From NCBI GenBank assembly GCA_041657445.1, contig JBBABV010000002.1:3364-67363 (forward strand): 64,000 nucleotides of DNA. The letters are read 5' to 3'. Each line of letters begins with the position of its first letter. Within the stretch, counting starts at the first letter, position 1. Shown one piece after another: positions 1,096-62,240 of this stretch. Source of the DNA: Minisyncoccota bacterium. Lineage in GTDB: Bacteria; Patescibacteriota; Minisyncoccia; Phycocordibacterales; UBA9973. The notes below the pieces were generated by a model, which worked only from the letters and a program-made list of their open reading frames with translations, was not told where the DNA came from and ran no database searches. A program made the position numbers and the translations under genes.

Positions 1096-1097
1096 AT

Positions 1098-1712
1098 ATG
1101 AAAAATGATAGATTAAAAATTGCGATACAGAAAAAAGGGAGACTAAGTGAAGCTAGTTTGGCATTTCTTAATTCTCTTGGTCTTAAATTTATACCTAATG
1201 GTCATTATTTAATACAAAAGTGTGAGAATAAAGATATAGATCTTATTCTCTTACGCGATGATGATATTCCCGAGTATGTCAGCCGGGGTGTCGCTGATTT
1301 TGCAATTATTGGGGAAAACGTTCTCTTGGAAAAGCAGATGAGCGCAGATGTAATTCGTGAATTAGATTTTGCTAAATGTCGCTTGGATATTGCTGTGCCT
1401 GAAAATTCATCAATTAAAACACCCGAGGATTTAGAGGGAGAACGCATAGCAACTACCTACCCCGAGCTATTAAAAGCATACTTAGCCAAAAATAATATCA
1501 ACTCCGCCATTATTCCCATTCAGGGTTCTGTAGAAATAACCCCTGAACTAAATTTAGCTGATGCAATTTGTGATGTGGTGCAAACTGGCAATACTTTGAA
1601 AGCCCACAATCTAAAATCCCTCGTAACGATTTTAGAATCTAAAGCTTTATTAATTACAAATAATGTCCCGAAGGAAGGTAAAGAAGCATTAAAAGAACTC
1701 TTACTAAAATAA
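1098..1712 (+). CDS. hisG: ATP phosphoribosyltransferase, short form (HisG_S, 204 aa)
   Basis: N-terminus MKNDRLKIAIQKKGRLSEASLAFLNSLGL and length are typical of short-form HisG. Starts 3 nt after the upstream stop. Confidence 0.9.
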   Translation: MKNDRLKIAIQKKGRLSEASLAFLNSLGLKFIPNGHYLIQKCENKDIDLILLRDDDIPEYVSRGVADFAIIGENVLLEKQMSADVIRELDFAKCRLDIAVPENSSIKTPEDLEGERIATTYPELLKAYLAKNNINSAIIPIQGSVEITPELNLADAICDVVQTGNTLKAHNLKSLVTILESKALLITNNVPKEGKEALKELLLK

Positions 1713-1715
1713 TCT

Positions 1716-2321
1716 ATGAAAAAGATAAACACCAAAAAAATAAATTGGGAAAAGGTTAACGGCCTTATCCCCGCCGTAATTCAAGATTTTTCTACTGGGT
1801 TGGTTTTAATGCTTGGTTACATGAATCAAGAAGCACTCACAAAAACTATGAAAAATGGCTTTGTGTGGTTTTATAGCCGAACCAGAAAAAAATTGTGGAT
1901 GAAGGGTGAAACCAGTGGCAATACTTTAAAAGTTCTGGATATAAAGCTAGATTGTGACAACGATACCTTACTTATCAAAGCCTTACCCAAAGGACATGTT
2001 TGTCACACAGGAGAACTAACATGTTTTTTTGAGACTCCAACGAATAACCCTATAAGAGATTTATTTACTACAATTATCAGTCGCAAAAATAAACTTCCAA
2101 AAGGGTCATATACAACTTCTCTCTTCAAAGCTGGCTTGGATAAAATTTCCTTGAAAGTGGCTGAGGAATCTTTAGAAGTTGTTCACGCTGCACAAAAACA
2201 AACACAAAAACGGCTCGTCGAAGAAGCTGTCGATCTCTTCTATCACCTTTTTGTCCTATTAGCAGAAAAAGAGATCACTTTAGAACAGGTCGAATCTGAA
2301 ATTAAAAAACGCCAGAAATAA
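1716..2321 (+). CDS. hisI: Bifunctional phosphoribosyl-AMP cyclohydrolase / phosphoribosyl-ATP pyrophosphatase (HisI-HisE fusion)
   Basis: HisI-like N-half (GLIPAVIQD...WFYSRTRKKLWMKGETSGN...CHTGELTCFF) and HisE-like C-half (KLPKGSYTTSLFKAGLDKISLKVAEESLEV). Confidence 0.9.
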   Translation: MKKINTKKINWEKVNGLIPAVIQDFSTGLVLMLGYMNQEALTKTMKNGFVWFYSRTRKKLWMKGETSGNTLKVLDIKLDCDNDTLLIKALPKGHVCHTGELTCFFETPTNNPIRDLFTTIISRKNKLPKGSYTTSLFKAGLDKISLKVAEESLEVVHAAQKQTQKRLVEEAVDLFYHLFVLLAEKEITLEQVESEIKKRQK

Positions 2322-2336
2322 ACTATAAAATAATTT

Positions 2337-3629
2337 ATGAAAATATTATCTACAAAAAAATATTCTCCATCAAAAATAATGAATATTATTCAACGGAAAC
2401 AAAGCCAGAAAGCTGACGTAGAAAAAGTAGTACGAAATATCATTCAGAGTGTCCGTAAGGATAAAGATAAAGCGTTATTTTCTCTGTCTGAACAGTTCGA
2501 TGGAGTTAAACTAAAAACACTCGGAGTTTTTAGAGAAGAAATTCTCGAAGCCTATACGCAGGAATCCAAAGAAGTTGTAAAAGCCCTAAAGGTAGCCAAA
2601 GCTAATATAGAAAAGTTCCACAAAAATAACGTAAAGAAGAAAGAAACTCCTATTGCAACAGCCAAGGGTGTAGAAGTTTGGCGAGAGTTTAGACCTATTG
2701 AAAAGATAGGACTTTACATTCCTGGAGGAAAAGCGGCCTATCCATCTACAGTTCTTATGCTCGGAGTACCGGCTAAAATTGCAGGTTGTAGTGAAATTGT
2801 TTTATGCGTACCGCCCGGGAAAGATGGCAAAGTTCCTAGTGTTGTGTTGGTCGCAGCCGATATCTGTGGTATATCAAAAATTTTCAAAGTCGGAGGTGCT
2901 CAAGCAATCGCCGCTATGGCTTATGGTACCGAATCAATACCAAAGGTTTCAAAAATATTTGGACCGGGGAATCAATACGTAACGACAGCCAAGATGCTCG
3001 TGTATGGAGAAGTTGATATAGATATGCCAGCAGGACCTTCAGAGGTTCTGGTATTTGCTGATACGACCGCCAATCCTGCTTGGGTAGCGGCTGACTTACT
3101 GTCTCAACTTGAACACGGAGAAGACTCTCAAGCAATACTGGTTACGGGATCACAAGTCATTGCCAGCCAAGTTTTAGCTGAAGTTAGGAAACAAACAAAA
3201 AATCTCTCACGAAAAGAGATTATTAAACAATCTCTTAAAAAAAGTTTTGCGGTTGTTGTGGAAAACGAAAATCAAGCGTGTAAACTCATTAACGAATACG
3301 CCCCTGAACACTTAGAAATTATAAGTGAAAATGAAAAGCAGATACTTGAGAAAATTAACAATGCAGGTTCGGTATTCTTGGGCCCTTATTCAAGTGAACC
3401 TTTAGGTGACTATGCGACTGGCAGTAATCACACCTTACCTACTTCCGGATACGCCAAAATGTTCTCAGCACTCTCCGTCGAATCATTTGGCAAGAAGATG
3501 CAAATTCAACGTGTTACTAAAGACGGAATTAAAAGACTAAAAACTACAGTTGAAGTTCTGGCCAAGAGAGAAAGACTAGATGCTCACAAGAATGCAATTA
3601 GTATTAGATTCAATAAAATTTATGATTAA
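2337..3629 (+). CDS. hisD: Histidinol dehydrogenase
   Basis: 430 aa with conserved HisD stretches (IPGGKAAYPSTVLMLGVPAKIAGC, FGPGNQYVTTAK, DYATGSNHTLPT). Confidence 0.92.
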   Translation: MKILSTKKYSPSKIMNIIQRKQSQKADVEKVVRNIIQSVRKDKDKALFSLSEQFDGVKLKTLGVFREEILEAYTQESKEVVKALKVAKANIEKFHKNNVKKKETPIATAKGVEVWREFRPIEKIGLYIPGGKAAYPSTVLMLGVPAKIAGCSEIVLCVPPGKDGKVPSVVLVAADICGISKIFKVGGAQAIAAMAYGTESIPKVSKIFGPGNQYVTTAKMLVYGEVDIDMPAGPSEVLVFADTTANPAWVAADLLSQLEHGEDSQAILVTGSQVIASQVLAEVRKQTKNLSRKEIIKQSLKKSFAVVVENENQACKLINEYAPEHLEIISENEKQILEKINNAGSVFLGPYSSEPLGDYATGSNHTLPTSGYAKMFSALSVESFGKKMQIQRVTKDGIKRLKTTVEVLAKRERLDAHKNAISIRFNKIYD

Positions 3630-4662
3630 TTCATTAGTGCGTTCAAACTTAAGAAACTTTAAACCATATAGCTCAGCTCGCAGCCTTTATCAAAAGGGAG
3701 TATTTATGGATGCCAATGAGAACTCTCTGGGTAGTGTAATTTCTACAGAATACAGTTCTGAACTAAATCGTTACCCAGATCCTTTATCTATGGATCTGAG
3801 AAAAGCCTTAGGGAAATTCTTAGATATTTCAGAAAAAAATATCTTTGTAGGGAGTGGATCGGATGAAATAATCGATTTGTTGATTCGCCTTTTTGTAGAA
3901 CAGGACGAAGAAATAATTGTAGAAGAACCATCTTATGGAATGTATAAGGTAGCTGCTGAAGTTGCGGGAGTAAAAGTAAAAAGCGTCCTATTAAAAGCAG
4001 ATTTTCAGATAGATATTTCAAACTTACTTTCTCAAATTACCTTTAAGACTAAAATTATTTTCCTTTGCTCACCGAACAATCCGACAGGAGCTTTGATAAG
4101 TTTTGAAGATATAGAAAATATCTGCAAGAACTTCAAAGGAATAGTAGTCGTAGATGAAGCGTATGTAGAATTTTCCTCCAAACCCTCTCTAGTGAATAAA
4201 GTCTCCAGTATAGAAAACTTGGTTGTCCTTCGAACATTTTCTAAGGCGTGGGGGTTAGCCGGTATAAGGGTTGGATATGCTGTAGCACAAGAAGAAATAA
4301 TTGATTACTTAAACAAAATAAAATTGCCCTATAACTTGAATCGCATTTCAAGCAAACTTGCTATTGAAGCTTTGGGTGAATACCAAAAAATGCTGGAGCT
4401 TAGAGAAATTATCCTGGGTGAACGAGAAAAACTGGCAAACGACTTAATCGACTTGGACTTTAAGGTTTTTCCCAGTGAAGCTAATTTTTTACTGGTTAAT
4501 TACCCAAATGCTTCAGAGGTCGCTAAAACCCTTGCTTTGGAGTATGGAATTATTATTAGAGATTTTGGTTCCAAACCAATGCTTAAGGACTGCGTACGAA
4601 TATCTGTAGGATCGTCAGAACAGAATGATTTATTAATAAAATCACTAAAGAAAATTTTATGA
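3622..4662 (+). CDS. hisC: Histidinol-phosphate aminotransferase. The ORF track starts at 3580; the start at 3622 (MINSLVRSNL..., 8-nt overlap with hisD) or at 3706 (MDANEN) is more likely.
   Basis: Class I/II aminotransferase with PLP-lysine context (RTFSKAWGLAGIRVGY) and the N-terminal KPYSSARS motif. Confidence 0.85.
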   Translation: MINSLVRSNLRNFKPYSSARSLYQKGVFMDANENSLGSVISTEYSSELNRYPDPLSMDLRKALGKFLDISEKNIFVGSGSDEIIDLLIRLFVEQDEEIIVEEPSYGMYKVAAEVAGVKVKSVLLKADFQIDISNLLSQITFKTKIIFLCSPNNPTGALISFEDIENICKNFKGIVVVDEAYVEFSSKPSLVNKVSSIENLVVLRTFSKAWGLAGIRVGYAVAQEEIIDYLNKIKLPYNLNRISSKLAIEALGEYQKMLELREIILGEREKLANDLIDLDFKVFPSEANFLLVNYPNASEVAKTLALEYGIIIRDFGSKPMLKDCVRISVGSSEQNDLLIKSLKKIL

Positions 4663-5720
4663 AAAAATCTATAGAAAAATTGAAGGTGGCATTCCTAGAC
4701 CGTGACGGGGTTCTGATTTATGAACCACAAGATACTAAACAAATTGATAGCCTAGAAAAGTTACAGATTTTGCCTAAAGTAATAACTGGACTGAAGACCC
4801 TCTTAAATTCTGGCTACAAACTAGTCATGGTATCTAATCAGGACGGTCTGGGTACAAAATCTTTTCCCACTGTTGATTTTGAGGTGGTGCAAAATAAATT
4901 ACTTGAGATTTTTAAAGAAGAAGAAATTTCCTTTTCCGAGATCTTTATCTGTCCACACTTCGAAAGTGATAAATGTAGTTGCAGAAAACCCAAAACAGGG
5001 CTTTTAGAAAAATTCTTATCTACAAACCTAATAGATTTAGAAAAGTCATTTGTTGTAGGAGATAGAAAAAGCGACGAGGAATTAGCTAAAAACCTCGGGG
5101 TTAAATTTTATCAAGTTGAAGTAAATGGATCTTTCCCAAGACTAGGTTCTGTCGAAAGAAATACCAAAGAGACAGAAGTGTTCATAAGATGTAATCTTGA
5201 TGGGCAAGGCATATTCAACATTGATACAGGAGTAAATTTCTTTAATCACATGTTAGAGCAATTTTCTAAGCACTCTCTTATTGATATAGACATCAAAGCA
5301 AATGGGGGCTTGAAAGTAGATGATCACCACACAATAGAAGATGTCGGTTTATCACTTGGGCAGGCCTTATTACAAGCCCTAAGCGACAGAAAAGGTATTA
5401 GGCGCTATGGCTTCCTATTACCTATGGATGACACCTTGGTGGAAGTAGCGATTGATTTGGGCGGTAGACCTTACCTAGTATTTAACTGCGACTTTAAAAG
5501 AGAAAAAGTCGGAGATTTACCTACTGAAATGGTCGAACACTTTTTCAGATCGGTAGCTGAATCTTTGAAAGCAAATATTCACATTAATGTTAAATACAGC
5601 AAAAATGAGCACCACAAAATTGAGGCAATTTTTAAGGCCTTTGCAAAATCTTTACGGATGGCAGTCGAAGCAGATTCTAGGCAAAAAGATAAACTACCTT
5701 CTACCAAGGGAATATTATGA
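4659..5720 (+). CDS. hisB: Bifunctional histidinol-phosphatase (HAD) / imidazoleglycerol-phosphate dehydratase
   Basis: N-terminal HAD motif VAFLDRDGVLI followed by an IGPD domain (DDHHTIEDVGLSLGQAL, HINVKYSKNEHHKIEA). 4-nt overlap with hisC. Confidence 0.9.
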   Translation: MKKSIEKLKVAFLDRDGVLIYEPQDTKQIDSLEKLQILPKVITGLKTLLNSGYKLVMVSNQDGLGTKSFPTVDFEVVQNKLLEIFKEEEISFSEIFICPHFESDKCSCRKPKTGLLEKFLSTNLIDLEKSFVVGDRKSDEELAKNLGVKFYQVEVNGSFPRLGSVERNTKETEVFIRCNLDGQGIFNIDTGVNFFNHMLEQFSKHSLIDIDIKANGGLKVDDHHTIEDVGLSLGQALLQALSDRKGIRRYGFLLPMDDTLVEVAIDLGGRPYLVFNCDFKREKVGDLPTEMVEHFFRSVAESLKANIHINVKYSKNEHHKIEAIFKAFAKSLRMAVEADSRQKDKLPSTKGIL

Positions 5721-6304
5721 AAATAGCAATCATTGATTATGGAGCAAGTAATTTGCAGAGTGTAGCCAATGCGTTAACTTCGCTTGGCAAATCTTTTGAA
5801 ATTGTCAGTGACCCAGAGAAACTTACTGATTTTGATAAGGTTATTTTACCTGGTGTGGGAGCTGCGGGTAGCGCAATGAAAAAACTTATCAAAAGTGGTT
5901 TTGCTGAAATCTTACCCAAATTGAAAGTCCCAACCTTGGGAGTATGTTTGGGATTGCAGTTATTTGCCGATTTCTCCGAAGAAGATAACACAAAGTGCCT
6001 ATCAATAATCCCTGGTGAAGTGAACAAATTCCAAACTGAACTAAAAGTTCCACATATGGGTTGGAATAAAGTTGAGTTTGTAAAAAATTCCTCCCTAGTT
6101 GCCGGCATCCCCAACAACAGCTTCTTCTATTTCGTGCACTCGTATTGCCTTGAAACTGAAGATAAATTTATTATAGGAAAAACAGCTTATGGCATTAATT
6201 TCCCAGCAATCGTTCAGAAAGACAACTTCTATGCTGTGCAGTTTCACCCTGAAAAATCTGGACAATGGGGACTAAAATTATTAGCTAACTTCTGTGATTT
6301 ATGA
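5717..6304 (+). CDS. hisH: Imidazole glycerol phosphate synthase, glutamine amidotransferase subunit
   Basis: Class I GATase triad context (GVCLGLQLF ... VQFHPEKS), 195 aa. Confidence 0.9.
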
Positions 6305-7788
6305 TAATTATTCCCGCCATAGATATTTTTGATGGAAAATGTGTGCGTCTCACACAAGGCGATTTTGGTCTGTCAAAGACATATAATGAAAACCCTGTTG
6401 CTGTAGCTAAAGAATTTGAAAGACTGGGAGCGCAATTCTTGCACATCATTGATTTAGAAGGGGCTAAAGAAAGACGACCGATGAATAAAGAAATAATTTT
6501 AGCCATAGTGAAGGCAGTTCAAATTCCTGTCCAAGTTGGAGGTGGTATTCGTTCTTATGATGACGCAAAGGTCTATCTAGAAAATGGAGTCGCTAGAATT
6601 ATTCTTAGTTCTATCATTATTGAAAACCCCAAAATGTTAGAGAAGTTGGTGAAGGAATTTGGAAGCTCAAAAATAGTTTTTTCGCTTGATATACGAAATG
6701 GACAATTTGCCAGCGCTGGCTGGAAAGATTTGGAGAAAAAATCTATTGCCGACATTCTTGAGTTTATCAAAACAATAAGAATAAAAACGATCATTGTGAC
6801 GGATGTTGCCAAGGATGGAATGCTCGAAGGGCCTAATTTGGAGTTAATGAAACAGATGCTTAAAGAAAAATTGGAGATTATAACTGCCGGGGGTGTTTCT
6901 TCAATTTCCGATCTATTAGAACTGAAAAAAATAAGAATAAAAAGCGTAATTATTGGTAAAGCACTTTACGAAGGAAAGATTGATCTACAAGAAGCCCTTA
7001 ATTTTACTAAACTTGTTTCTAATTTAACCAAAAGGATTATCCCTTGTTTGGATGTAAAAGATGGGAAGGTCGTTAAAGGTGTTCGTTTTCGTGACCACGC
7101 TGTAATTGGAGATATTGTCGAACTTGCTAAACGATATAGCGACGAAGGAGCTGATGAATTAGTTTTCTATGACATTACCGCCAGCACGGAAGCCAGAACT
7201 GTATCAATTGATTGGGTAAAAAAAGTATCCAAAGTAATTAATATTCCATTTTGCGTGGCCGGTGGTATTACCTCGGTTGAAGATGCAAGAAAAATCTTAC
7301 AAAGTGGTGCGGATAAAATTTCCATTAATTCGCCTGCACTTGAAAATCCAGATCTGATTAATAATCTGGTTAAAGAATTTGGCTCTCAGGCTGTTGTGGT
7401 TGGAATAGATAGTCTAAAAGAAGGCGACGAGTATTTTGTAAAACAATACACTGGTGATCCAGACAAAACTCAATCAACCAAATGGCTTACTTTTGATTGG
7501 GCACTAGAGGCTCAAAATCGAGGTGCTGGTGAAATAGTGCTTAATTGCATGAACCAAGACGGAACTCGTAAAGGTTATGACATTGATCAGCTTAAGGTAT
7601 TGTCTAAATTACTCACAATCCCCGTAGTCGCTTCTGGTGGAGCAGGTTCAGCCGAAGATTTTGTGAAAGTTTTTCAGGAAACTAATGTTGATGCAGGATT
7701 AGCCGCAAGTATTTTTCACAGCAGAAAAATTTCTATCCTAGACCTAAAAAACGTTCTAAAGGAAAATAATATACAAATTCGTTTATGA
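6301..7788 (+). CDS. hisAF: Fused ProFAR isomerase (HisA) / IGP synthase cyclase subunit (HisF), one 495-aa polypeptide
   Basis: N-half is HisA-like ([23 protein letters not shown]...VQVGGGIRS). C-half is HisF-like ([22 protein letters not shown]...VFYDITAS...[12 protein letters not shown]). No stop codon lies between the two halves. Confidence 0.85.
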
Positions 7789-7795: not shown

Positions 7796-7822
7796 AAACC
7801 ACCCAACAGGGTGATTTTTTGT
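7796..7822 (+). terminator. Rho-independent terminator of the his operon
   Basis: CCACCC-aaca-GGGTG hairpin followed by ATTTTTTG. Confidence 0.7.
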
Positions 7823-7900: not shown

Positions 7901-7918
7901 CTAGCTCAAGCTGGCTGG
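7901..7918. repeat. Left direct repeat (att-like) of the integrated element: ctagctcaagCtggctgg
   Basis: 17/18 identical to 21539-21556 (ctagctcaagTtggctgg), which overlaps the tRNA-Gln 3' end. Confidence 0.65.
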
Positions 7919-7982
7919 CGTCCTTGAGCCAGAACCGTGGTCGGTCAAGCCCCGTAAGGACATTTTTAATACCTTTATTCTA

Positions 7983-8132
7983 TCATTTCGACGGTCTTTG
8001 AGCAGTAGGTTTTTTATACCGATCTGGATTCTGCTTTTTATCTTGCTCTAATAGCCATTGAAAGACTGCCACCACTCTATCGGTTTCTTCCTTAGTCCAA
8101 TTTTTAGGATTTCTTTTATCTTCTTGATTCAT
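7983..8132 (-). CDS. Small hypothetical protein (49 aa) at the island edge. Not in the ORF track because it is under 60 aa.
   Basis: ATG at 8132, TGA at 7983-7985. Translation: MNQEDKRNPKNWTKEETDRVVAVFQWLLEQDKKQNPDRYKKPTAQRPSK. Confidence 0.3.
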   Translation of the reverse strand: MNQEDKRNPKNWTKEETDRVVAVFQWLLEQDKKQNPDRYKKPTAQRPSK

Positions 8133-8177
8133 AAAAAGTGACAAAAGTGACACAGGTTTGAGTATAAAAGTTACAGA

Positions 8178-8792
8178 CTACTGCAACTTTTTAACCTCAA
8201 AAGAGCCTGTATTATTACGATCTCTGCCCGAGTAATACTCTGTTTGAAGTATTCCTTCATCTTCCAGTTTTGCAGATGCTGACCCCTCATGTATGTGCAT
8301 ACTTTCGGGAGCATTATCTTTTGGTTTGTTTCTGTATTGATAATGTATTCGAGCTGTTCCAAATTCATCAACATTCATTGATGCCTCAAAACTAAAAGAT
8401 TCTGATGTCTCTGTTTCTAGGTAAATCAGCATGTGTGTCCATGTTTGTTTGATACAAAATTTTTTTATCGGTATTGGACCATTAGCATGATTTGAATGAG
8501 AAGTTATATTTCCAGACCAGTTTCCATCTACGATAGGAGTTTTTATATTAGTAATTTTGCGAATAAAATTATTTCTCCACAACTTAGTCTCGAACCACTT
8601 ATGTAAAATTCCGTAAAAACCAATCACCGAAGGAGCCTCAACCCACCACGGAAGTGCAAAGATATTTTGTGAGAAAAGATATAAACCCCAGGCAAGCAAT
8701 ATAGACAATACCGCAAGGTAGAGCGATACATACTTGTGTTCTTCTGAATTTATTGAATATGGATGAATATTTTGCATAATTATTGATTCCAA
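8178..8792 (-). CDS. Putative CBASS effector: two N-terminal TM helices plus a C-terminal beta-rich domain (Cap15 / S-2TM-beta-like)
   Basis: 204 aa. Hydrophobic helices at residues ~22-42 and ~47-70, then a soluble ~130-aa domain. Overlaps the upstream NTase gene by 13 nt and is the last gene of the operon. Confidence 0.5.
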   Translation of the reverse strand: MESIIMQNIHPYSINSEEHKYVSLYLAVLSILLAWGLYLFSQNIFALPWWVEAPSVIGFYGILHKWFETKLWRNNFIRKITNIKTPIVDGNWSGNITSHSNHANGPIPIKKFCIKQTWTHMLIYLETETSESFSFEASMNVDEFGTARIHYQYRNKPKDNAPESMHIHEGSASAKLEDEGILQTEYYSGRDRNNTGSFEVKKLQ

Positions 8793-9703
8793 TTATCCCA
8801 AAGCTCTACAAAAGCACTGATAGTTTTTACTGCATCATCTTGATTCCATTGCTCCTCACTTTCACCAAATAATTCATGAAAATGGTTTTGACACACACAT
8901 TGACCAAGTGGCAATGCAGACCAGAGGTGTTTTAATACGGCGTGTACGGTCGTGGAATGATCACCAGCGAAATGTTCATCAGGGACATTGTAAACTAATG
9001 ACTGTAAGAAATACGATGGTGCTATACCATCGACAAGTTTACCTGTATCAACAAGATGATTTCTCATATTCTTGAAAATTCGTACTGTTGGCTTAAAGCG
9101 TCCACCTGTACGAGTATCTGAATTTTTATTAACTCCATTTTGATAGTGGTGCTCTGGATAATTTATAATTCCACGATTTGTTGTGCGATGATAGAACTTC
9201 ACACCCTCTTCTGCATTATGACTATTGGTACCATAAAAATAATTATATTTACGATAATTTATAACAGGAACAATATCAGCCTTTAATCTTCCTGAAGAAG
9301 GTTTGAGTTTAATTGATTTATTACCACTTGTATCAACGGACAGTAGTCCATAATATTTGGTTAGAGCAGAGATGACATCTCTGCGTAAATCTTGCCAATC
9401 ATAAACAGCACTACTGTATGTCTGGTCATGAGCATTTTTCTGATCATAAGGAAGTTCATGTGCATTATGACCAAATGTGGTTGTTAGTTCGACAACTACA
9501 TCAACATCGCTATCTGCTCGAATATTTGTATCATTTTTATACGATCCCTGGAGATAGATTTTTACCGAGCCATTATTGATACGATCTTTAAGTGGAGACT
9601 GATCGTGTGTTAGTGCAGTCCGGATAGATTCATGTGTTGTTTTTGCTGAAACAGTAGCACCTTGATTCGACCATGTTGTTAGTTGAGAGAGTGGAATTGC
9701 CAT
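8780..9703 (-). CDS. cGAS/DncV-like nucleotidyltransferase (CD-NTase, SMODS-type)
   Basis: Pol-beta NTase signature GSYKNDTNIRADSDVDVVV (GS...[DE]h[DE]h) and a later third acidic motif KADIVPV (hDhhP). 307 aa, typical CD-NTase size. The ATG lies 1 nt past the TGA of the upstream gene. Confidence 0.6.
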   Translation of the reverse strand: MAIPLSQLTTWSNQGATVSAKTTHESIRTALTHDQSPLKDRINNGSVKIYLQGSYKNDTNIRADSDVDVVVELTTTFGHNAHELPYDQKNAHDQTYSSAVYDWQDLRRDVISALTKYYGLLSVDTSGNKSIKLKPSSGRLKADIVPVINYRKYNYFYGTNSHNAEEGVKFYHRTTNRGIINYPEHHYQNGVNKNSDTRTGGRFKPTVRIFKNMRNHLVDTGKLVDGIAPSYFLQSLVYNVPDEHFAGDHSTTVHAVLKHLWSALPLGQCVCQNHFHELFGESEEQWNQDDAVKTISAFVELWDNWNQ

Positions 9704-9704
9704 A

Positions 9705-10649
9705 TCATTTAAATAGATTATCGATTTCAGCCGACCAATTATCGCTATGTATTATCCTATTTTTTTGATAGTTATTTTTAAGTATTTCTGCTTTGGTCAT
9801 TTGAGAAAGTACCTCCCAATCAGTACCTAACACATAAGTTGCATTACCATAATGCAAACTTTCAAGTAAATAAATACTTTTATCTTTATATCCAAACACA
9901 AGATACCCAGTAAAACCTCCCAACCCTATCGCTATTTGGTTAGGTTTATAAGATTCAATTTTCTTGAATCTGTCGGCTATCATTGCTTTTTCCCCAGTAG
10001 ATCTCTTTTCAATAATTTCTTTAACTCTTTCATTAACTTTACTCCAAGGATTTATTCCAGGGGGTAGTAACTCCCAGTTGAGTCTAATAATTTTAGTTTT
10101 AACTGGCAGAGTTAAATTTTCTTTGAAAATCTGGAACTCATCAAATATTTCAAAAAACAAATTCATTGCATGCTTAATATCAGCATATTCACTTTTTGCT
10201 TTTTTAAATTTCTTTGAAATAACTATTTTCTTTGCATCTTTTTCAGCAATTTGAAACTCCAAACTTGGAGGAGGAACCAATTCTCTTTGCCATCTTTCAT
10301 ATGGCATATAATTTACACCACTATGTTCGTAGCCACCCCAATCAGTTAACGTCCATTCTCTAGGATAATAAACTGTCTCTTTTGGTAGATCCTTTCTGGG
10401 ATTTTCTTTACCTTCTGCATTAAATTCTGAAACATTTCCAAATATTGCAGGAAGAACAGTCTCGCCGATATTAACATCTTTAGAGAAACCTATTTTTTTG
10501 AGCAAATTCATTAAACTATCAGTAACTTCTACACCAATATAAAAATCTTCATTATCTTTTATTAAGGATAAATATTTTTCAGGATTAACTACTCTCTTAT
10601 GTCTTTTCTTTGCCATAAATTTAATATAGATCACCAGGGAGCACAGCAA
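9705..10649 (-). CDS. Hypothetical protein (314 aa; an alternative start MAKKRHKR at 10616 gives 303 aa), sitting between the repressor and the CD-NTase
   Basis: Long ORF with no motif I recognise. Tightly coupled to the flanking genes (4-nt gap or 29-nt overlap upstream, 1-nt gap downstream). Confidence 0.6.
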   Translation of the reverse strand: MLCSLVIYIKFMAKKRHKRVVNPEKYLSLIKDNEDFYIGVEVTDSLMNLLKKIGFSKDVNIGETVLPAIFGNVSEFNAEGKENPRKDLPKETVYYPREWTLTDWGGYEHSGVNYMPYERWQRELVPPPSLEFQIAEKDAKKIVISKKFKKAKSEYADIKHAMNLFFEIFDEFQIFKENLTLPVKTKIIRLNWELLPPGINPWSKVNERVKEIIEKRSTGEKAMIADRFKKIESYKPNQIAIGLGGFTGYLVFGYKDKSIYLLESLHYGNATYVLGTDWEVLSQMTKAEILKNNYQKNRIIHSDNWSAEIDNLFK

Positions 10650-11268
10650 CGACTACTCCTTGTATGATGCAGTTATCTGTTAATATAATCGGCTTGTGGT
10701 TTTTGTTCGTTGACTTTGGTTGAAGTACAACAGCACCATTCGCTTTCTTAAACACTTTGACGGTTGCTTCGTCATTTATAAGAGCAACAACTTTATCGTT
10801 ATCTTCTGCTGTATCTTGCTGTCGAATCAAAAGCAGATCACCACTATTAATTCCTGCAAGATTCATTGAGTCTCCGATCGCACGCAAAAGAAAATATTTT
10901 GAACCCTTTTTAGCTAGTCCTGTTGATACAGGAATTAATGCTTGGATATTTTCTTCGGCAAGAACAGGTGCACCGCAAGTCACAGCACCTACCAAGGGCA
11001 CATCAACAGTGCTTATTGAAGCTGTTGTTTGTGATCCAGTAAGGATAAGTTGTCGCCCGATTTTCTTTATAAGTCCCGCATCGATTAGTCGATTAATTAC
11101 AAGACTCGCAGATCGTGGAGAAGCTCCACCTGTAACCTCATTAATCTCACTAAGCGTAGGGCTTTTGCCATAATGAACAATCTTGTTACGGATAAGGGCA
11201 AATGCTTTTTTATCTTTGTCGCTAAGGTTATTTGTCATGGTATAAATAGTATAAATTACTCTATACAA
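10621..11268 (-). CDS. LexA/CI-like repressor (wHTH plus S24 self-cleaving peptidase). The start at 11238 (MTNNLSD) is more likely.
   Basis: N-terminal winged-HTH region (...KSPTLSEINEVTGGASPRSASLVINRLIDAGLIKK). Cleavage-site-like VGAVTCGAP. S24 Ser/Lys context (LLRAIGDSMNLAGINSGDLLLI ... KVVALINDEATVKVF). Confidence 0.85.
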   Translation of the reverse strand: MYRVIYTIYTMTNNLSDKDKKAFALIRNKIVHYGKSPTLSEINEVTGGASPRSASLVINRLIDAGLIKKIGRQLILTGSQTTASISTVDVPLVGAVTCGAPVLAEENIQALIPVSTGLAKKGSKYFLLRAIGDSMNLAGINSGDLLLIRQQDTAEDNDKVVALINDEATVKVFKKANGAVVLQPKSTNKNHKPIILTDNCIIQGVVVAVLPGDLY

Positions 11269-11296
11269 AAAAGCAAGTATTTGCTATGATGTCTTT

Positions 11297-11920
11297 ATGA
11301 AAAATGACCAGAAAAAACCAATGACTGTCGGTGAACTGGTGGCAAAGATACATCCCCCTGTCTTGAGTGAGGGGCAGATTTCTCAATTCCAGGAAATCGG
11401 TAAAAGACATGCCGAAATGATTGAGAATGTGAGAAAGGTCGCTCAACCTATTATTGAACAAATGAATCGTGTTAGAGAACAGATAAAGATTTTTGAACCA
11501 GTAGAGTATCCTGAGATCGTATTTAATCGCCCTGTTGAGTATGACATTTTGGAAGAACTTCAAGAACTAAATAAAAACCACAAGCGACTTCTGTCCTCAG
11601 GCCAGGATAGCAATGTAATTATTTATGATACAAGAAACGGATCGCTCGACAGACATTTAGGCGGTAAACTTTTCTCATACGACCTCACTGAAAATGGAAA
11701 AAGAAAACAATTACTTGAAATACTTCTTGACCGTGGCACATATGTAAAAACAAAAGAACTTGAATCCATGCTTTCATCGCCAGCCATAGCAAAAATAGTT
11801 CAGACTTTTAATGACTATGCGATCAACACCCTAAGGCTTCCAAAGAAAACAAAACTCATTCAAGGAAAGAAAGGCTCTGGGTATCGTATCAATCCTAAAA
11901 TACACATAGAGAAAGAGTAA
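11297..11920 (+). CDS. Hypothetical protein with a C-terminal winged-helix (OmpR-like trans_reg_C-like) region, divergent from the repressor
   Basis: C-terminus ...LLEILLDRGTYVKTKELESML...GKKGSGYRINP resembles an OmpR/PhoB-family wing. 207 aa. Confidence 0.45.
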   Translation: MKNDQKKPMTVGELVAKIHPPVLSEGQISQFQEIGKRHAEMIENVRKVAQPIIEQMNRVREQIKIFEPVEYPEIVFNRPVEYDILEELQELNKNHKRLLSSGQDSNVIIYDTRNGSLDRHLGGKLFSYDLTENGKRKQLLEILLDRGTYVKTKELESMLSSPAIAKIVQTFNDYAINTLRLPKKTKLIQGKKGSGYRINPKIHIEKE

Positions 11921-12093
11921 ATTCCTAAGTTGACACCAAGTTGAGTGGATAACTTTGAAAAATCGCCTTTAAATAGGCGTTTTTTCTTTATGCTACTCAA
12001 TTTTATGCCAATTACATGCCTATGTACCTTTTTGATTTCATAGAGTTAGTAGATTAGTCATCTACAAATTTATAAGTAATCAAATAAAACTCT

Positions 12094-13371
12094 ATGAATA
12101 AAAAACCTTCATGGAAAACAGGAGTTCGAGAAGTCAAAGACTTACTCCCTTGGAAAGAAAATCCAAGAAAAATCTCACGGGTCGCTATGGAGAAATTAAA
12201 AGAGAAAATCATTCAAAGTGGTTTTCATAGTGTGATTGTCATTGATACAGACAACACCATTATCTCTGGCAACCAAAGAAAAACAGCTTTGATACAGCTC
12301 GGTATCAAACAAGTAAATGTATTAATCCCTGATCGCAAACTATCAGACGACGAACGTCGCAAGATTGCTATTGAAAGCAACATCAACGACGGTGAATGGG
12401 ATTTCGAAAAGCTTAAATCTTTTGATTTAGAGCTTTTACAATTTGCTGGATTCAACGAAAAAGAATTGGTTAAGTTTTGGGACGAAGAAAAGGATTCCAA
12501 AGATGATAAATTCGATGTCGATAAAGAGTTAAAGAAAATAAAAACACCACAAACGAAACCTGGCGACCTCATTGTTATGGGCGGTCATAAGTTGTTGTGT
12601 GCTAGTTCTACCGATATGAATGCTGTCACCAAACTATTCGGAAATGATAAAGCTACCGCTATCTATAATGACCCACCTTTTAATATCGGACTCTCATACG
12701 ATAAAGGTGTGGGCAATAAATCTAACTATGGAGGTACCTTTGACGACAATCAATCACCTGAAGAATACAAAGAATTTATTCGCAAGGTTCTAAAATCTTC
12801 ACTAGCCGTATCTAATAAGGACGTACACGTCGCTTTCTGGTGTGATGAAGCCTGGGTGTGGGTTTTTCAAACGCTCTATATGGAAAATGGAGTTAAGAAC
12901 CGAAGACTTAATGTCTGGATCAAAAACAATTCGTCGCCGACACCTACTGTTGCGTTCAATAAGTGTCTTGAGTATTGCGTGTATGGCACGAAAGGATATC
13001 CATATATTTCTGATCTCGTAAAAAATCTCAACGAAGTACAAAACAAAGACTACGGAACTGGCAATCAACTTCTCGAAGATATCTCAAATATCTGGGCAAC
13101 AAAACGACTACCTGCGAATCAAATGGAGCATGCGACGAGTAAAAATCCTGAATTACACCATAAGTTTATTATGCGTTGTACCAAGCCAGGAGACATCATT
13201 TTTGATGCCTTCTCTGGATCTGCTAGCACTATGATCTGTGCGGAACAACTTGGTCGAAAGGTTTATTCCCTAGAAATAGAACCTGTGTTTTGTGATTTAG
13301 CAATTCGTCGTTATGAAAAATTAACTGGTCACAAGGCACAAGTAATCAAGAATTTCTATGAAAAAGAATAA
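12094..13371 (+). CDS. ParB-like nuclease domain fused to a beta-class N6-adenine/N4-cytosine DNA methyltransferase (phage-type)
   Basis: N-terminal ParB/Srx motif (KENPRKISRVAMEKL...ISGNQRKTA). Motif IV IYNDPPFNIG precedes motif I IIFDAFSGSAST, the beta-class order. Confidence 0.8.
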   Translation: MNKKPSWKTGVREVKDLLPWKENPRKISRVAMEKLKEKIIQSGFHSVIVIDTDNTIISGNQRKTALIQLGIKQVNVLIPDRKLSDDERRKIAIESNINDGEWDFEKLKSFDLELLQFAGFNEKELVKFWDEEKDSKDDKFDVDKELKKIKTPQTKPGDLIVMGGHKLLCASSTDMNAVTKLFGNDKATAIYNDPPFNIGLSYDKGVGNKSNYGGTFDDNQSPEEYKEFIRKVLKSSLAVSNKDVHVAFWCDEAWVWVFQTLYMENGVKNRRLNVWIKNNSSPTPTVAFNKCLEYCVYGTKGYPYISDLVKNLNEVQNKDYGTGNQLLEDISNIWATKRLPANQMEHATSKNPELHHKFIMRCTKPGDIIFDAFSGSASTMICAEQLGRKVYSLEIEPVFCDLAIRRYEKLTGHKAQVIKNFYEKE

Positions 13372-13765
13372 ATTTCAAGATCAGTTCCTTGATGAACTAC
13401 GGAAAGTGCCGATCGTTCAAGTGGCATGCGAGAAGACAGGATTGTCTCGCAATAGTGTCTATCGTTGGCGAAAAGATGATAAAGAATTTATCAAGAAAAT
13501 GGATGGTGCACTTTCTGAAGGTGTCGCTTTGGTAAATGACATGAGTGAGAGCCAACTACTCACTCTTATTAAAGAGAAAAACTATCCTGCGATTAGTTTT
13601 TGGCTTCGTCACCGAAATGATAATTACAAGAACAAACTTGAAATTACTACCAAGGATGACAATGAAGAACTGACACCGTCACAAGCAAAAATCGTAAAAC
13701 AAGCACTCAAACTCGCAAAAATTACCAAGTCGAAATCTATTAAAAACATTAATCGTAAAAAATAA
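13358..13765 (+). CDS. Terminase small subunit-like HTH protein
   Basis: 135 aa with an N-terminal HTH (VACEKTGLSRNSVYRWRK). Overlaps the upstream gene and sits immediately before terL. Confidence 0.5.
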   Translation: MKKNKFQDQFLDELRKVPIVQVACEKTGLSRNSVYRWRKDDKEFIKKMDGALSEGVALVNDMSESQLLTLIKEKNYPAISFWLRHRNDNYKNKLEITTKDDNEELTPSQAKIVKQALKLAKITKSKSIKNINRKK

Positions 13766-13767
13766 TT

Positions 13768-15264
13768 ATGACTAAAATAATTTCAAAAGCACTGGTTAAT
13801 ACGATGATAAAAGATCGTTCAGTGCGAACATCAATTACAAAAGATAGTTTCCTGTACTTTTTCCACTTCTACTATGCACACTATGTGAAATACGAAACGG
13901 CAGACTTCCAAAAAGAGATTATTCATAATCTCGAAAAGAGCACCACTGAAAACTTATATGTGGTGGCGTTTCGTGGATCTGGAAAATCCACCATGGTGAC
14001 AACTGCATATCCGATTTGGGCAATCCTCGGAAAACAGCAAAAGAAGTTTTGTATTATCTTTTGCCAAACACGAGCACAGGCAAAACAACACATGATGAAT
14101 ATTCGTACAGAGCTTGAGGGTAACGATGTACTTAAAAAAGACCTCGGACCATTCCAAGAAGAAAGCGATGAATGGGGTTCATTCTCCCTTGTATTCAAGA
14201 AGCACGGAGCAAGAATTACCGTAGCTTCTGCCGAGCAAAGTATTCGTGGTATTCGCCACAACGAACACCGCCCAGATTTAATAATCTGTGACGATGTTGA
14301 AGATGTGCAATCAACCAAAACTCGTGAAGGTCGAGAAAAGACTTATAACTGGCTCCGTGGTGAAGTTATACCTGCTGGTGATAGGAATACTCGACTAATC
14401 ATTGTCGGAAACTTACTCCATGAAGATTCGCTGTTAATGCGAATAAAAGACGAGATTGCTAAAGGTAAAGCAAAAGGAATATTTAAAGAGTATCCGTTGA
14501 TTGATAAGAATGGTGTGTGCTTATGGTCTGGAAAATATGCAACAGAAAAAGATCTTGAAGATGAGAAGTTAAAAGTTGCCAGTGAAATATCTTGGCAACG
14601 AGAATATTTACTTCGTATTATTCCGAGCGATGATCAAGTTATCTACCCAGAGTGGATTCAATTTTATGATGAACTGCCAGGAGAAAAACATCGTGGCTAT
14701 CGTGGTACTTATGCAGGCGTAGATCTTGCTATATCAGCGTCAGAAACTGCCGATGATACTGCTGTGGTGTTTGCTCACATTTATTCACGCCGTGAGAAAT
14801 TGCGAATCTACATACTACCTAACCCTATTGCAAAGAAACTTAACTTTCCTGCACAGGTAGATCTCATGAAAGATATTCGTAACACACTACTCACAAGAAG
14901 TTCTGATGAATTATTTGTTGAAAGTGTTGCGTATCAAGAAGCTCTACCTCAAATGCTCGAACATCATGGTGTTAAGGCTACAGCAATTAAACCCAAAGGA
15001 GATAAGCGAACAAGACTAGCTCTTACTTCGACTGCAATAAAATCAGCAAAGATTTTATTCCCAAGAGAAGGATGTGAAAGACTTATCGAGCAATTGGTCG
15101 GATTCGGTGTTGAAAAGCATGACGACTTAGCAGATGCATTTTCTCTCTTGATCAACTCAACCATGGACAAGCATTCGGGAGAATCAACATGGCTTATGTA
15201 CTGGATGGGAGACGATGAACCTTTGTACTTTAGGGATTATGTAGATATGGATCAAAAAAAGTAG
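13768..15264 (+). CDS. Phage terminase large subunit (ATPase plus RNase H-like nuclease)
   Basis: Walker A VVAFRGSGKST, Walker B LIICDDVED, and a C-terminal nuclease region GVDLAISASETADDTAVVFAH. Confidence 0.8.
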   Translation: MTKIISKALVNTMIKDRSVRTSITKDSFLYFFHFYYAHYVKYETADFQKEIIHNLEKSTTENLYVVAFRGSGKSTMVTTAYPIWAILGKQQKKFCIIFCQTRAQAKQHMMNIRTELEGNDVLKKDLGPFQEESDEWGSFSLVFKKHGARITVASAEQSIRGIRHNEHRPDLIICDDVEDVQSTKTREGREKTYNWLRGEVIPAGDRNTRLIIVGNLLHEDSLLMRIKDEIAKGKAKGIFKEYPLIDKNGVCLWSGKYATEKDLEDEKLKVASEISWQREYLLRIIPSDDQVIYPEWIQFYDELPGEKHRGYRGTYAGVDLAISASETADDTAVVFAHIYSRREKLRIYILPNPIAKKLNFPAQVDLMKDIRNTLLTRSSDELFVESVAYQEALPQMLEHHGVKATAIKPKGDKRTRLALTSTAIKSAKILFPREGCERLIEQLVGFGVEKHDDLADAFSLLINSTMDKHSGESTWLMYWMGDDEPLYFRDYVDMDQKK

Positions 15265-16656
15265 TTGCGAGTATGCAATATTTCGCTAGTTCTGCATAGA
15301 CTTAGCAAAACGCTCAAATTGCGTCATCAATATAATATGGAGACGCAATATATAAGCAATTTAGGAGTAAGAACAGAGGTACCAAAAACCAAGATTCGGT
15401 ATGTCCTGTATGCTCGAAAATCAACTGAATCGGACGAAAAACAAGCCTTGTCTATTGAATCACAAGTTAAGGAAATGCTTGCTATCGCCGACCGTGATAG
15501 CTTAACGGTTGTTGATATTAGACGTGAATCTCACTCGGCTAAAGAATCTGGTCAACGACCAGTATTTAGAGAGGTATTAGAGGATGTAAGGCGTGGTAGG
15601 TATAACGGCATACTCACCTGGGCCCCTGATCGTCTATCGAGAAACGCTGGTGATCTGGGATCAGTAGTTGACCTTATGGACGAGACGAAACTTCTTGAAA
15701 TAAGAACATACGGACAACACTTCAAAAATTCTCCCAATGAGAAGTTTCTTTTGATGATCCTGTGTTCACAAGCCAAACTCGAAAACGATAATAAAAGTAT
15801 CAATGTAAAACGAGGGCTACGAACAAGATGTGAAATGGGGCTTCGTCCAGGTCCTGCTGTAGTTGGATATCTCAACGAAAAACGAATGGATAAAAAATGT
15901 GAGGTTGTTATAGATCCAGAACGAGCACCAATAGTTAAACAAATGTTTGAAAAAGTGGCATACGAAAAGTGGTCAGGAAGAAAACTCTACCACTGGCTAA
16001 AATTTGATCTAAACTTCAAAACTCGAAGTGGCAACAAAGGTCTTACTCTTAGTAACATTTATCTCATACTTCAAAACCCATTTTATTATGGGGTTTTTGA
16101 ATATCCTCGAAAGAGTGGAAATTTTTATACAGGAAAACACGAACCGATAATCAATAAAGAACTTTTTGATCTGGTTCAAGAGCAAACAAAAAGCCAAGTA
16201 CTACGGACCCAAGAACCAAAAGAATTTGCTTTTACAAAAATGATGACATGTGGACTTTGTGGATCGGGAATCTGTGCAGATGAAAAGTTTAAAAAGTTAA
16301 AAGACGGATCAGTGAATAGACATATATATTATGGATGTACGAGATCAAAGGATAAAAATTGTAAGTGTGGGTATATAAACGAAAGTGAACTAATACAACA
16401 ATTTGAAAAGCTGATTGATCAAGTAAATATCAATGAGATTGGAATGAAAGAGAAGATTAAATATGAGGTTGAGCGAATAAAACGCTTTAATCAATCTGTA
16501 TTAAATACAAAACAACAGATACAAATAAAAGACGTAGACATTAGAGACTACGCCAAATTTATTTTAAAAGACGGCTTGATTGAAGAGAAGCGAGAATTAT
16601 TAACTTGTTTTAAGAGTAAGATTATATTGAAAAATAAAATAGTTTCAATTAATTGA
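15265..16656 (+). CDS. Large serine recombinase (integrase). The start at 15337 (METQYISNLG) is more likely.
   Basis: Catalytic YARKSTESDEKQ (YxRxSTxxQ) resolvase domain, then a recombinase domain, then a Cys-rich zinc-ribbon (CGLCGSG...YYGCTRSKDKNCKCG). Confidence 0.85.
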   Translation: MRVCNISLVLHRLSKTLKLRHQYNMETQYISNLGVRTEVPKTKIRYVLYARKSTESDEKQALSIESQVKEMLAIADRDSLTVVDIRRESHSAKESGQRPVFREVLEDVRRGRYNGILTWAPDRLSRNAGDLGSVVDLMDETKLLEIRTYGQHFKNSPNEKFLLMILCSQAKLENDNKSINVKRGLRTRCEMGLRPGPAVVGYLNEKRMDKKCEVVIDPERAPIVKQMFEKVAYEKWSGRKLYHWLKFDLNFKTRSGNKGLTLSNIYLILQNPFYYGVFEYPRKSGNFYTGKHEPIINKELFDLVQEQTKSQVLRTQEPKEFAFTKMMTCGLCGSGICADEKFKKLKDGSVNRHIYYGCTRSKDKNCKCGYINESELIQQFEKLIDQVNINEIGMKEKIKYEVERIKRFNQSVLNTKQQIQIKDVDIRDYAKFILKDGLIEEKRELLTCFKSKIILKNKIVSIN

Positions 16657-45069: not shown

Positions 45070-45143
45070 TTATTTACTGTGTCGACGCCAGGATTTGCAC
45101 CTGGGACCTGCACTTTATGAGTGTGCCGCTCTAACTACCTGAG
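45070..45143 (-). tRNA. tRNA with a CAU anticodon (elongator Met, or Ile2/lysidine type)
   Basis: Acceptor GUCGGCG/CGUCGAC, D-arm GCUC-AGGUAGUU-GAGC, anticodon loop CUCAUAA, T-arm CCAGG-UGCAAAU-CCUGG. Confidence 0.75.
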
Positions 45144-45229
45144 CTACGCCGACATACTAAAACCTTATTAAATATAACTTAAGAAAGTTTTGTTTGCAAA
45201 TAATGAAAAAAATGTATATACTGCAACAT

Positions 45230-45531
45230 AGCGGGGTGGAGAAGTGGTATCTCACAAGGCTCGACATAATGGGCCCCTCAATAGGAAACTATTGAGTTCG
45301 CATTTGCCAAATTCGGGGAAGTCCTCCCTTGTAATTTTTACAAGAAAGATAATCCCGAGCTAAACCTCACTAATCAGTGAGAAAATGTGTAGAGACTAGA
45401 TGGCAAACTCCTTAATTCTTTATTAAAGAAAAGGAGATGGGATAGTCCAGACCACAAATTCATAGTGATGTAGTGAAAACTATAGTGGTAAGCATAACCT
45501 TGAGACAGCCGTTCGAATCGGCTCCCCGCAA
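45230..45531 (+). tRNA. CAU-anticodon tRNA (Met; possibly the initiator, given A1·A72) interrupted after U33 by a 231-nt group I intron (45262-45492). 5' exon 45230-45261, 3' exon 45493-45531.
   Basis: Exons are AGCGGGGUGGAGAAGUGGUAUCUCACAAGGCU | CAUAACCUUGAGACAGCCGUUCGAAUCGGCUCCCCGCAA. Anticodon stem CAAGG/CCUUG, T-arm AGCCG-UUCGAAU-CGGCU, acceptor GCGGGG/CCCCGC. Confidence 0.65.
45262..45492 (+). mobile_element. Group I intron (no ORF) in the CAU tRNA
   Basis: Plus-sense P AAUUCGGGGAAGUCC, Q AAUCCCGAGC, R GUGUAGAGACUAGA, S GAUGGGAUAGUCCAG in canonical order. The intron ends in G. Confidence 0.65.
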
Positions 45532-57923: not shown

Positions 57924-58038
<115 letters not shown>

Positions 58039-58369: not shown

Positions 58370-58400
<31 letters not shown>

Positions 58401-58460
58401 ATCTTCTCAAGAATCAACGAGTGCAGTAGATAGGAGACCAACCTGTCTCACGCATGTTTT

Positions 58461-61971: not shown

Positions 61972-61991
61972 ACCCGACAAGGTATTTCGCT

Positions 61992-62205: not shown

Positions 62206-62240
<35 letters not shown>

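Follow-up and report, generated by a model that had tools for sequence, protein, structure and literature searches.

A LexA-type repressor gene heads a CdnE-Cap15 gene cluster with an exchangeable second gene on an 8.7-kb integrative element

The 64,000-nucleotide stretch of DNA analysed here (hereafter the window; from contig JBBABV010000002.1 of the Minisyncoccota bacterium assembly GCA_041657445.1) carries four tightly packed, co-directional open reading frames (ORFs) on the minus strand between 8178 and 11268, as seen in the ORF list and the sequence. They encode a LexA-type repressor, a conserved protein that we call X, a cGAS/DncV-like nucleotidyltransferase (CD-NTase) of the CdnE kind and a Cap15 effector, and they make up most of the leftward arm of a small integrative element. 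On balance, and with fair though incomplete confidence, we read them as a repressor-gated operon of defence cargo, in which the element's own LexA would control a cyclic-oligonucleotide-based anti-phage signalling system (CBASS) together with the cargo X. The CdnE-Cap15 core and the regulation of CBASS by DNA damage were already known, whereas the LexA-type wiring appears to be new, and the swappable slot adds to its interest.

Gene content of the operon and its carrier

A blastn comparison of the window with a Ca. Paceibacterota metagenome-assembled genome (L010) and with L005 gave about 90% identity over exactly 7914/7916-16638/16645, and the flanks are unrelated in all three copies. Since the homology stops at these boundaries and the flanks differ, the operon belongs to an integrative element of 8.7 kb. 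The "mobile island" in which an earlier note, made from this DNA sequence alone, had placed the genes is thereby confirmed and delimited. The leftward arm of the element consists of LexA, X, CdnE, Cap15 and a small ORF, p56 (Table 1).

We prefer the ATG starts at 11238, 10616 and 8777, which give proteins of 205 (LexA), 303 (X) and 199 aa (Cap15) and agree with the gene calls in the near-identical L005 and L010; the mechanically called TTG starts are probably overlong. With these ATG starts, the LexA stop codon is followed by 4 nt and the ATG of X, the stop codon of X by 1 nt and the ATG of CdnE, and that of CdnE by 2 nt and the ATG of Cap15. The earlier note had placed all four ORFs correctly and had given the first two spacings as ~4 nt and 1 nt, which agrees with this count; the 13-nt overlap it described between cyclase and effector arises only if Cap15 is begun at a TTG at 8792, and is replaced by the 2-nt gap. 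The profile hidden Markov model matches of the genes have E-values of 1e-26 to 1e-106, far beyond chance. As for p56, it is 90-95% identical in L005, L010 and L099 and 68% identical in L104, where CdnE is 67% identical (tblastn), and the L005 gene call at its position is 63 aa long. A Pfam search with p56 returned no match, and it is a possible fifth gene of the operon.

The 307-aa product of the third gene matches the PADLOC Cyclase profile PDLC00788 at 3.9e-106 (residues 1-305 on profile positions 1-297 of 297) and, over its full length, the structure of RmCdnE (6E0K) at 2.8e-65. All five of its matches to solved structures are CdnE enzymes (6E0K, 7X4F, 6E0M, 7X4C and 7X4A; 2.8e-65 to 1.2e-26), and by these matches the protein belongs in clade E (CdnE) of the CD-NTases. 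The earlier note had recognised a CD-NTase by the hallmark motifs GSYKNDTNIRADSDVDVVV and ADIVPV, and both motifs do fall on invariant or near-invariant columns among 46 homologues (G53 S54, D64 S65 D66 V67 D68 and D143). In the active-site pattern GS...DxD...D, no homologue departs from G53, S54, D66 or D68, and D143 is nearly invariant. The Pfam domain CD_NTase_C is present in homologues of the protein, and the NCBIfam profile 'DS2_2_antiphage' gives a score of 295.7, under its cut-off of 350. Names among the homologues include Moraniibacteriota, Vogelbacteria, Paceibacterota and Nomurabacteria.

The protein encoded directly after the cyclase matches both Pfam domains of Cap15 above threshold, namely Cap15_CD_rec with 92.3 bits (cut-off 31.2; 3.7e-26; profile positions 2-122 of 122) and Cap15_TM with 39.8 bits (gathering score 28.2; 7.6e-10), as well as the PADLOC 2TM effector profile (8.6e-57) and the solved Cap15 receptor domain 7N34 (5.6e-9). 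Judged by these matches it is a Cap15 protein, with two N-terminal transmembrane (TM) helices and a predicted C-terminal beta-barrel receptor, so that the earlier reading of a then 204-aa product as a Cap15/2TM-beta effector is upheld for the 199-aa form.

Scans of the element's genes with Pfam, PADLOC and PHROG profiles found no Cap2/Cap3 (E1/E2/JAB) and no HORMA/TRIP13 domain. Given a full-length cyclase, a partner with the Cap15 domains and no accessory genes, the pair appears to be a type I CBASS like those published for CdnE+Cap15, made of cyclase and effector only, and thus minimal in the sense of the earlier note. A working example of this kind is the type I-B CBASS of Staphylococcus schleiferi, Ssc-CdnE03/Cap15, which disrupts membranes (PMC10686824). 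With this system, as with RmCdnE (6E0K) and Cap15 (7N34), the window shares the two-gene core and its order, with the clade-E CD-NTase first and the two-TM Cap15 second, and like Ssc-CdnE03/Cap15 it does without Cap2/Cap3 and HORMA/TRIP13. However, in contrast to a free-standing CdnE/Cap15 pair, the two genes stand here in third and fourth place, behind a LexA-type repressor and a cassette gene, and unlike their Staphylococcus counterparts they are carried on a small integrative element, probably of a bacterium of the Candidate Phyla Radiation (CPR).

The first gene encodes what its sequence identifies as a LexA-type, S24 repressor of the element. The protein scores 129.7 bits against TIGR00498 lexA (equivalog cut-off 110.95), matches Pfam Peptidase_S24 at 1e-26 and reaches 21.1 bits against Pfam LexA_DNA_bind, slightly under the gathering score of 23.7. 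Its alignment with E. coli LexA (7B5G, 2.9e-20) spans the whole protein and retains both catalytic residues, the Ser in GDSM and the Lys in ATVKVF. Of the earlier description as a LexA/CI-like S24 repressor at the head of the operon, the LexA and S24 parts therefore hold, but the protein is not of the CI type (HTH_3).

Predicted control of the leftward operon

The two arms of the element are separated by a divergent control region of 58 bp. Reading leftward, it contains a promoter-like -35 box TTGCTT (11276-11271), a 17-nt spacer and a -10 box TATACT (11253-11248), from which only 9 nt lead to the LexA ATG, so that the leftward transcript would be leaderless or nearly so. Inverted arms GTATA (11266-11262) and TATAC (11253-11249) are found here, as well as a second TTATAC (11245-11240), and a plus-strand promoter-like site (11262-11290) overlaps the leftward candidate promoter region. 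The same promoter layout lies upstream of LexA homologues that are 50-76% identical (L104, L108, L088 and L029), and in four cases (L010, L029, L088 and the window) only 7-9 nt separate the -10 box from the start of LexA. Among closer relatives the GTATA/TATAC arms are fixed while four central bases vary, a pattern that would fit the operator of a dimeric repressor. This short palindrome was found by eye and by comparison, an inverted-repeat search having missed it, and can be called a candidate operator only, because one of its arms coincides with the -10 box.

We propose that the element's LexA would bind this GTATA/TATAC operator over the -10 box and so repress its own operon as well as the packaging and recombinase genes of the rightward arm, with basal read-through supplying LexA, X, CdnE and Cap15. 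Once RecA filaments signal DNA damage or phage replication, LexA would cleave itself by means of its Ser/Lys dyad at a Cys-Gly site, the operon would be derepressed, and CBASS levels would rise as the packaging and recombinase genes switch on. CdnE, on sensing infection, would then make a cyclic di- or oligonucleotide, and Cap15 would bind this nucleotide and disrupt the inner membrane, such that the infection is aborted. In this scheme X would be a separate, exchangeable cargo that the CBASS core can dispense with. That cleavage of the repressor should lead to induction rather than loss of the transcript is predicted from the position of the LexA-type operator over the -10 box. The four genes would be co-transcribed, as their gaps of 4, 1 and 2 nt suggest; no strong internal minus-strand promoter was found in the operon, where promoter-like sites are not enriched (11, against 14.0 +/- 4.1 expected).

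Several observations weigh against this scheme. Some bases of the putative operator also belong to the -10 hexamer, and the conservation of its arms may in part be conservation of the promoter; moreover, the spacing of the arms varies in distant relatives, being N8 in the window and N7 in L088. The scissile position of the repressor is Cys-Gly (VTCGAP, as compared to VAAGEP in E. coli LexA), whereas the bond typical of LexA is Ala-Gly, and Cys-Gly is the cleavage site of UmuD. Terminator-like hairpins number 5, against 1.8 +/- 1.4 expected, and three of the five lie on the minus strand within the coding regions of LexA, CdnE and Cap15, so that some attenuation of the transcript may occur. Finally, no Shine-Dalgarno sequence is evident before any of the four operon genes, which, together with the closeness of the -10 box to the LexA ATG, points to a first cistron without leader and to termination-reinitiation coupling across the rest of the operon.

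The strongest competitor to damage-induced expression is a maintenance transcript of the kind known from lambda cI-rexAB, which would be on in quiescence and off upon inactivation of the repressor, with CBASS as a constitutively expressed moron. The earlier note had drawn this analogy, and as far as the layout of the genes is concerned it is apt: in both cases the defence genes come immediately after the element's repressor and are divergent from the mobilisation and packaging genes. The control region resembles the switches of temperate phages, and transcription of the operon has to continue under repression, because the repressor is its first gene. However, the regulator is LexA-type, above the cut-off of TIGR00498, and not an HTH_3 CI, and genes for head, tail or lysis are lacking from the element. 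The candidate operator covers the spacer and the -10 box, which is the position of negative autoregulation, with no upstream activating site evident, and the known dedicated regulators of CBASS all raise expression on DNA damage. Maintenance expression, the other half of the analogy, is thus rather unlikely in our view, since a LexA-type repressor with an operator over the -10 box predicts damage induction, such that cleavage would induce and not abolish the transcript.

Abortive-infection systems such as CBASS need to be silenced until they are required. The regulators of CBASS known to respond to DNA damage are CapW (a WYL protein), CapH with CapP (an HTH protein and an M78 peptidase) and CapK with CapS (a kinase and a repressor). 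The operon in the window resembles them in encoding its own dedicated repressor, which DNA damage would likewise be expected to inactivate, and a further likeness to CapH/CapP is that relatives of X are also found beside M78/HTH pairs. It differs from all of them in that the regulator combines a LexA winged helix-turn-helix with a self-cleaving S24 peptidase, which in the LexA paradigm depends on RecA, and in that its gene is the co-directional first gene of the operon and not divergent upstream. No WYL, M78 or kinase domain was found in or beside the operon by Pfam, NCBIfam and PHROG scans. The papers on CapH/CapP and CapK/CapS make no mention of LexA or S24, and a targeted literature search returned nothing specific on an S24/LexA-type regulator built into a CBASS operon. 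On the best reading, the S24/LexA-type regulator would join CapW, CapH/CapP and CapK/CapS as the fourth way in which CBASS is tied to DNA damage. If this is true, a self-cleaving LexA-type repressor would couple CBASS expression straight to RecA/SOS signalling and to the switch that induces its own carrier.

Protein X and the exchangeable slot

X has a fixed architecture and no recognisable fold. The earlier note had called the protein between repressor and cyclase unrecognisable (there with 314 aa, against 303 aa from its ATG), and indeed X and twelve homologues gave no match in Pfam, PHROGs, PADLOC or NCBIfam, and a sequence-profile search of the PDB with X was empty. Modelling with AlphaFold from the single sequence was unusable (predicted local distance difference test score, pLDDT, of 35) and was redone with a 64-sequence alignment. 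The family comprises 277 close relatives and 2,153 cluster representatives at 50% identity, all of about 300 aa, and spans many phyla, reaching archaea. Residues E80, H149, E252, K275 and H290 are invariant. Longer homologues contained no informative fusions; their N-terminal extensions were considered as such and rejected, because they look like mis-called starts. We likewise rejected X as a phage gene, as it is rare in phages (one of 50,697 phage records, and 14 of 2.9 million IMG/VR contigs). Its neighbourhoods are of the mobile and defence type, with integrases and restriction-modification genes, and it stands alone on small plasmids; plasmid alleles are known from Enterobacter and Kluyvera as well as Lactococcus. 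A homologue that is 38% identical and annotated 'hypothetical protein' lies at 4986-5897 on the 14-kb plasmid 5 of Lactococcus cremoris SK11 (L090), directly after a 1,560-aa DEAD/DEAH helicase, and this lactococcal plasmid offers a culturable setting for X.

In a survey of 88 X loci, DUF2188 was the commonest immediate neighbour (21 loci within 2.5 kb), followed by M78 (ImmA/IrrE/CapP-like) peptidases (15) and LexA-type repressors (11). The LexA gene is co-directional and tightly coupled in L029 and L088, and divergent in L018, L020, L022, L023, L028, L037 and L042. This neighbourhood pattern matches the 'DUF2188 + hypothetical protein' operons associated with CapH/CapP, which were described alongside CapH/CapP-regulated 'DUF2188 + nucleotide cyclase' operons by Lau et al. 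(10.1101/2022.04.27.489752). Citing Burroughs & Aravind 2020, these authors count DUF2188 and DUF3892 among the genes of conflict systems.

The role of X is best judged from L098-L100, which carry the window's element with near-identical proteins (LexA 96-99.5%, CdnE 97%, Cap15 93-95%) and ~86-93% identical DNA outside X. In these copies X is replaced by a DUF2188 gene of 75-86 aa (Pfam 3.9e-19; PADLOC candidate PDC-S16 1.3e-27). The nucleotide homology with the window breaks exactly at the stop codon of X (9704/9705) and in its first codons (10598-10606), and the coupling junction is preserved across the swap, because both cassettes begin with MAK.... DUF2188 genes that match PDC-S16 over their full length are found at 2045-2275 in L098, 6765-6992 in L096 and 6768-6995 in L095. 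In a sibling element from Saccharibacteria (L088), which has the same recombinase, TerL, TerS and ParB-methyltransferase as that of the window, the stretch 9258-12099 holds LexA and X and, after them, PycTM (1.4e-25) and PycC (1.4e-57), so that the pyrimidine cyclase system for antiphage resistance (Pycsar) takes the place of CBASS; the repressor-headed slot hence accepts different cyclic-nucleotide cassettes. The swap for DUF2188 and the pairing with Pycsar argue that X is an exchangeable cargo or a part of the regulatory head and not a component of CBASS. X is a probable defence or conflict protein that the CBASS core would not need. We also rejected a role as recombination directionality factor of the serine recombinase, since X is missing from sibling elements that have this recombinase.

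X and DUF2188 have much in common in their placement: DUF2188 fills exactly the slot of X in sibling elements, adjoins it elsewhere, and like X occurs under LexA-type or M78/HTH regulators. However, hhalign detected no homology of X with DUF2188 (probability 0.1%) or with DUF3892, and unlike these genes X is absent from PADLOC, NCBIfam and Pfam and is four times larger. The elements constitute a natural experiment, with near-identical copies that differ only in X versus DUF2188 and siblings that differ in CBASS versus Pycsar, and they single out X, with its 2,153 clusters, and DUF2188 as candidate immune or regulatory genes.

One could argue instead that X is an accessory of cyclic-nucleotide defence, be it a sensor, a regulator or a second effector, and as such a Cap-like component and not an independent cargo. 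Three independent arrangements do place X next to cyclic-nucleotide systems: the window has it in LexA-X-CdnE-Cap15, L088 in LexA-X-PycTM-PycC and L153 in CdnE-Cap15-X. In other loci DUF2188 and DUF3892 fill the same slot before CdnE. But the gene that replaces X where CdnE is 97% identical is unrelated to it, a Cdn or Cap15 match within 2.5 kb turned up in just one X locus of the 88 surveyed (L010, a copy of the element; L088 and L153 were found separately), X occurs by itself on small plasmids, and most CdnE-Cap15 loci are without X. An accessory role is therefore improbable, and we continue to regard X as exchangeable cargo. A more far-reaching idea, which we offer tentatively and think more likely wrong than right, is that LexA and the gene in the second slot (X or DUF2188) form a portable DNA-damage-gated driver for interchangeable CBASS and Pycsar systems on small terminase-bearing elements of CPR bacteria, with X as a new single-gene anti-phage or conflict protein of an unseen fold that comes under S24 LexA or M78/HTH control depending on the lineage.

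Other genes also occupy the slot before CdnE-Cap15. In L140/L141 (4672-4956) it holds a DUF3892-like protein (3e-07, from a single-seed profile and not from the Pfam scan), in L108 (4339-4545) a 68-81-aa protein without a Pfam match that is common to L101, L102 and L108, and in L097 (6024-6998) a 324-aa protein with a weak match to a proteasome subunit.

The arrangement of the operon as such, which the earlier note had presented as unusual, recurs in related elements with a swappable middle gene, and is accordingly less of a surprise. The order LexA-X-CdnE-Cap15 is also present in L005 and L010, LexA-DUF2188-CdnE-Cap15 in L094/95, L096, L098-100, L103 and L104, and in L108 LexA and an 81-aa protein precede CdnE-Cap15. 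Identity of CdnE to that of the window is 80% in L094/95, 68% in L096, 97% in L098-100 and 67% in L104. L096 is a complete genome of Ca. Moraniibacteriota in which TerL, TerS and the ParB-methyltransferase lie alongside the operon, and all named records among the recurrent LexA-headed operons are CPR bacteria. A LexA gene lies upstream on the same strand in 9 of the 63 CdnE loci with enough upstream sequence to judge, all nine of them in a subclade at least 52% identical, which indicates that the link between LexA and CBASS is conserved but lineage-specific and not universal. These loci show that mobile elements of CPR bacteria, a group whose defences have received little study, carry cyclic-nucleotide immune systems.

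It is very unlikely that the LexA gene is the chromosomal SOS regulator of the host and its adjacency to CBASS a coincidence, even though the protein passes the lexA equivalog threshold, because the gene lies inside an element found in three different flanks and accompanies the cargo in at least nine other loci. The pairing of cyclase and effector is firmer still, since Cap15 comes directly after CdnE in nearly all of ~85 related loci, and the two can be regarded as a fixed two-gene unit. The notion that the 307-aa protein is an MNT/AbiEii component or a KNTase, and its partner an unrelated membrane protein, can be dismissed: although there is a weak Pfam match to NTP_transf_2 (20.7 bits, under the gathering score) and the SMODS match (24.3 bits) stays just under its own gathering score of 26.5, the CD-NTase identity wins the comparison with full-length matches to CBASS cyclase profiles and solved CdnE structures, no match to MNT/AbiEii and a sole aminoglycoside-nucleotidyltransferase match, ANT(9), at E=0.14, and the partner bears both Cap15 domains in a pairing that is near-universal among relatives.

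Remaining features of the element and its flanks

Table 1. Positions in the window of the element, its genes and its candidate control site
Feature	Position	Strand	Basis or remark
Integrative mobile element, 8.7 kb	7916-16645		~90% identity to L010 and L005 copies
p56 small ORF, 49-56 aa	7983-8153	-	downstream of Cap15; conserved in relatives
Cap15 effector, 199 aa	8178-8777	-	two N-terminal TM helices and cyclic-nucleotide receptor domain; Pfam, PADLOC, PDB
CD-NTase clade E (CdnE-like), 307 aa	8780-9703	-	CBASS cyclase; PADLOC and PDB matches
Protein X, 303 aa	9705-10616	-	conserved two-domain protein; swappable cassette
LexA-type repressor, 205 aa	10621-11238	-	LexA winged-helix DNA-binding domain and S24 self-cleaving peptidase
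Candidate promoter/operator of leftward operon	11240-11276	-	read from sequence; conserved layout in LexA homologues
Divergent rightward operon	11297-16656	+	PHROG and Pfam matches
p207	11297-11920	+	first gene of rightward arm
ParB-N6/N4 methyltransferase	12094-13371	+	rightward arm
TerS	13358-13765	+	rightward arm
TerL	13768-15264	+	rightward arm
Large serine recombinase	15265/15337-16656	+	Pfam Resolvase, Recombinase, Zn_ribbon_recom

The rightward arm gave PHROG matches to phrog_498 (2.8e-71), phrog_4044 (2.4e-9) and phrog_38 (1.8e-78), and the last 11 nt of the recombinase ORF extend past the boundary of the element. Scans with PHROG and Pfam profiles revealed no portal, capsid, head, tail or lysis genes in the 8.7 kb. 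The element is hence not a complete prophage, since the genes for virion and lysis are absent. Possibly it behaves like a phage satellite, or hijacks packaging, in CPR bacteria. Related versions are found in Saccharibacteria (L088), Peribacteria (L064) and Moraniibacteriota (L096). At the left end of the element an RNA fold was not significant (z = -1.2), and a terminator-like hairpin lies just outside this end, at 7800-7813.

On the right, the element is adjoined by a type III restriction-modification pair at 16649-21234 on the minus strand, with a Res protein of 928 aa and a Mod protein of 600 aa; Res has a weak match to a TnsA-like endonuclease (PF08722, 23.0 bits, under the gathering score of 26.5). 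The left flank (52-7788, plus strand) holds histidine-biosynthesis genes, among them a HisB-type bifunctional-like ORF at 4659-5720, a HisH-like ORF at 5717-6304 and a fused HisA/HisF with two His_biosynth domains at 6301-7788. Amino-acid biosynthesis is unusual for a CPR genome, if the host is one. Ribosomal RNA invaded by introns and endonucleases is typical of CPR bacteria, and towards the far end of the window the 23S rRNA gene (minus strand, region 57927-64000) falls into the separate matches 62106-64000 and 60241-61157, with LAGLIDADG endonuclease ORFs at 61302-61778 and 58854-59525 interrupting the region. Together with the Ca. Paceibacterota origin of L010 and the names of the cyclase homologues, this interrupted rRNA makes a CPR bacterium the probable host. 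A group I intron match from Rfam (45252-45468, plus strand, 63.4 bits) adjoins a tRNA-Met on the opposite strand (45079-45153, minus).

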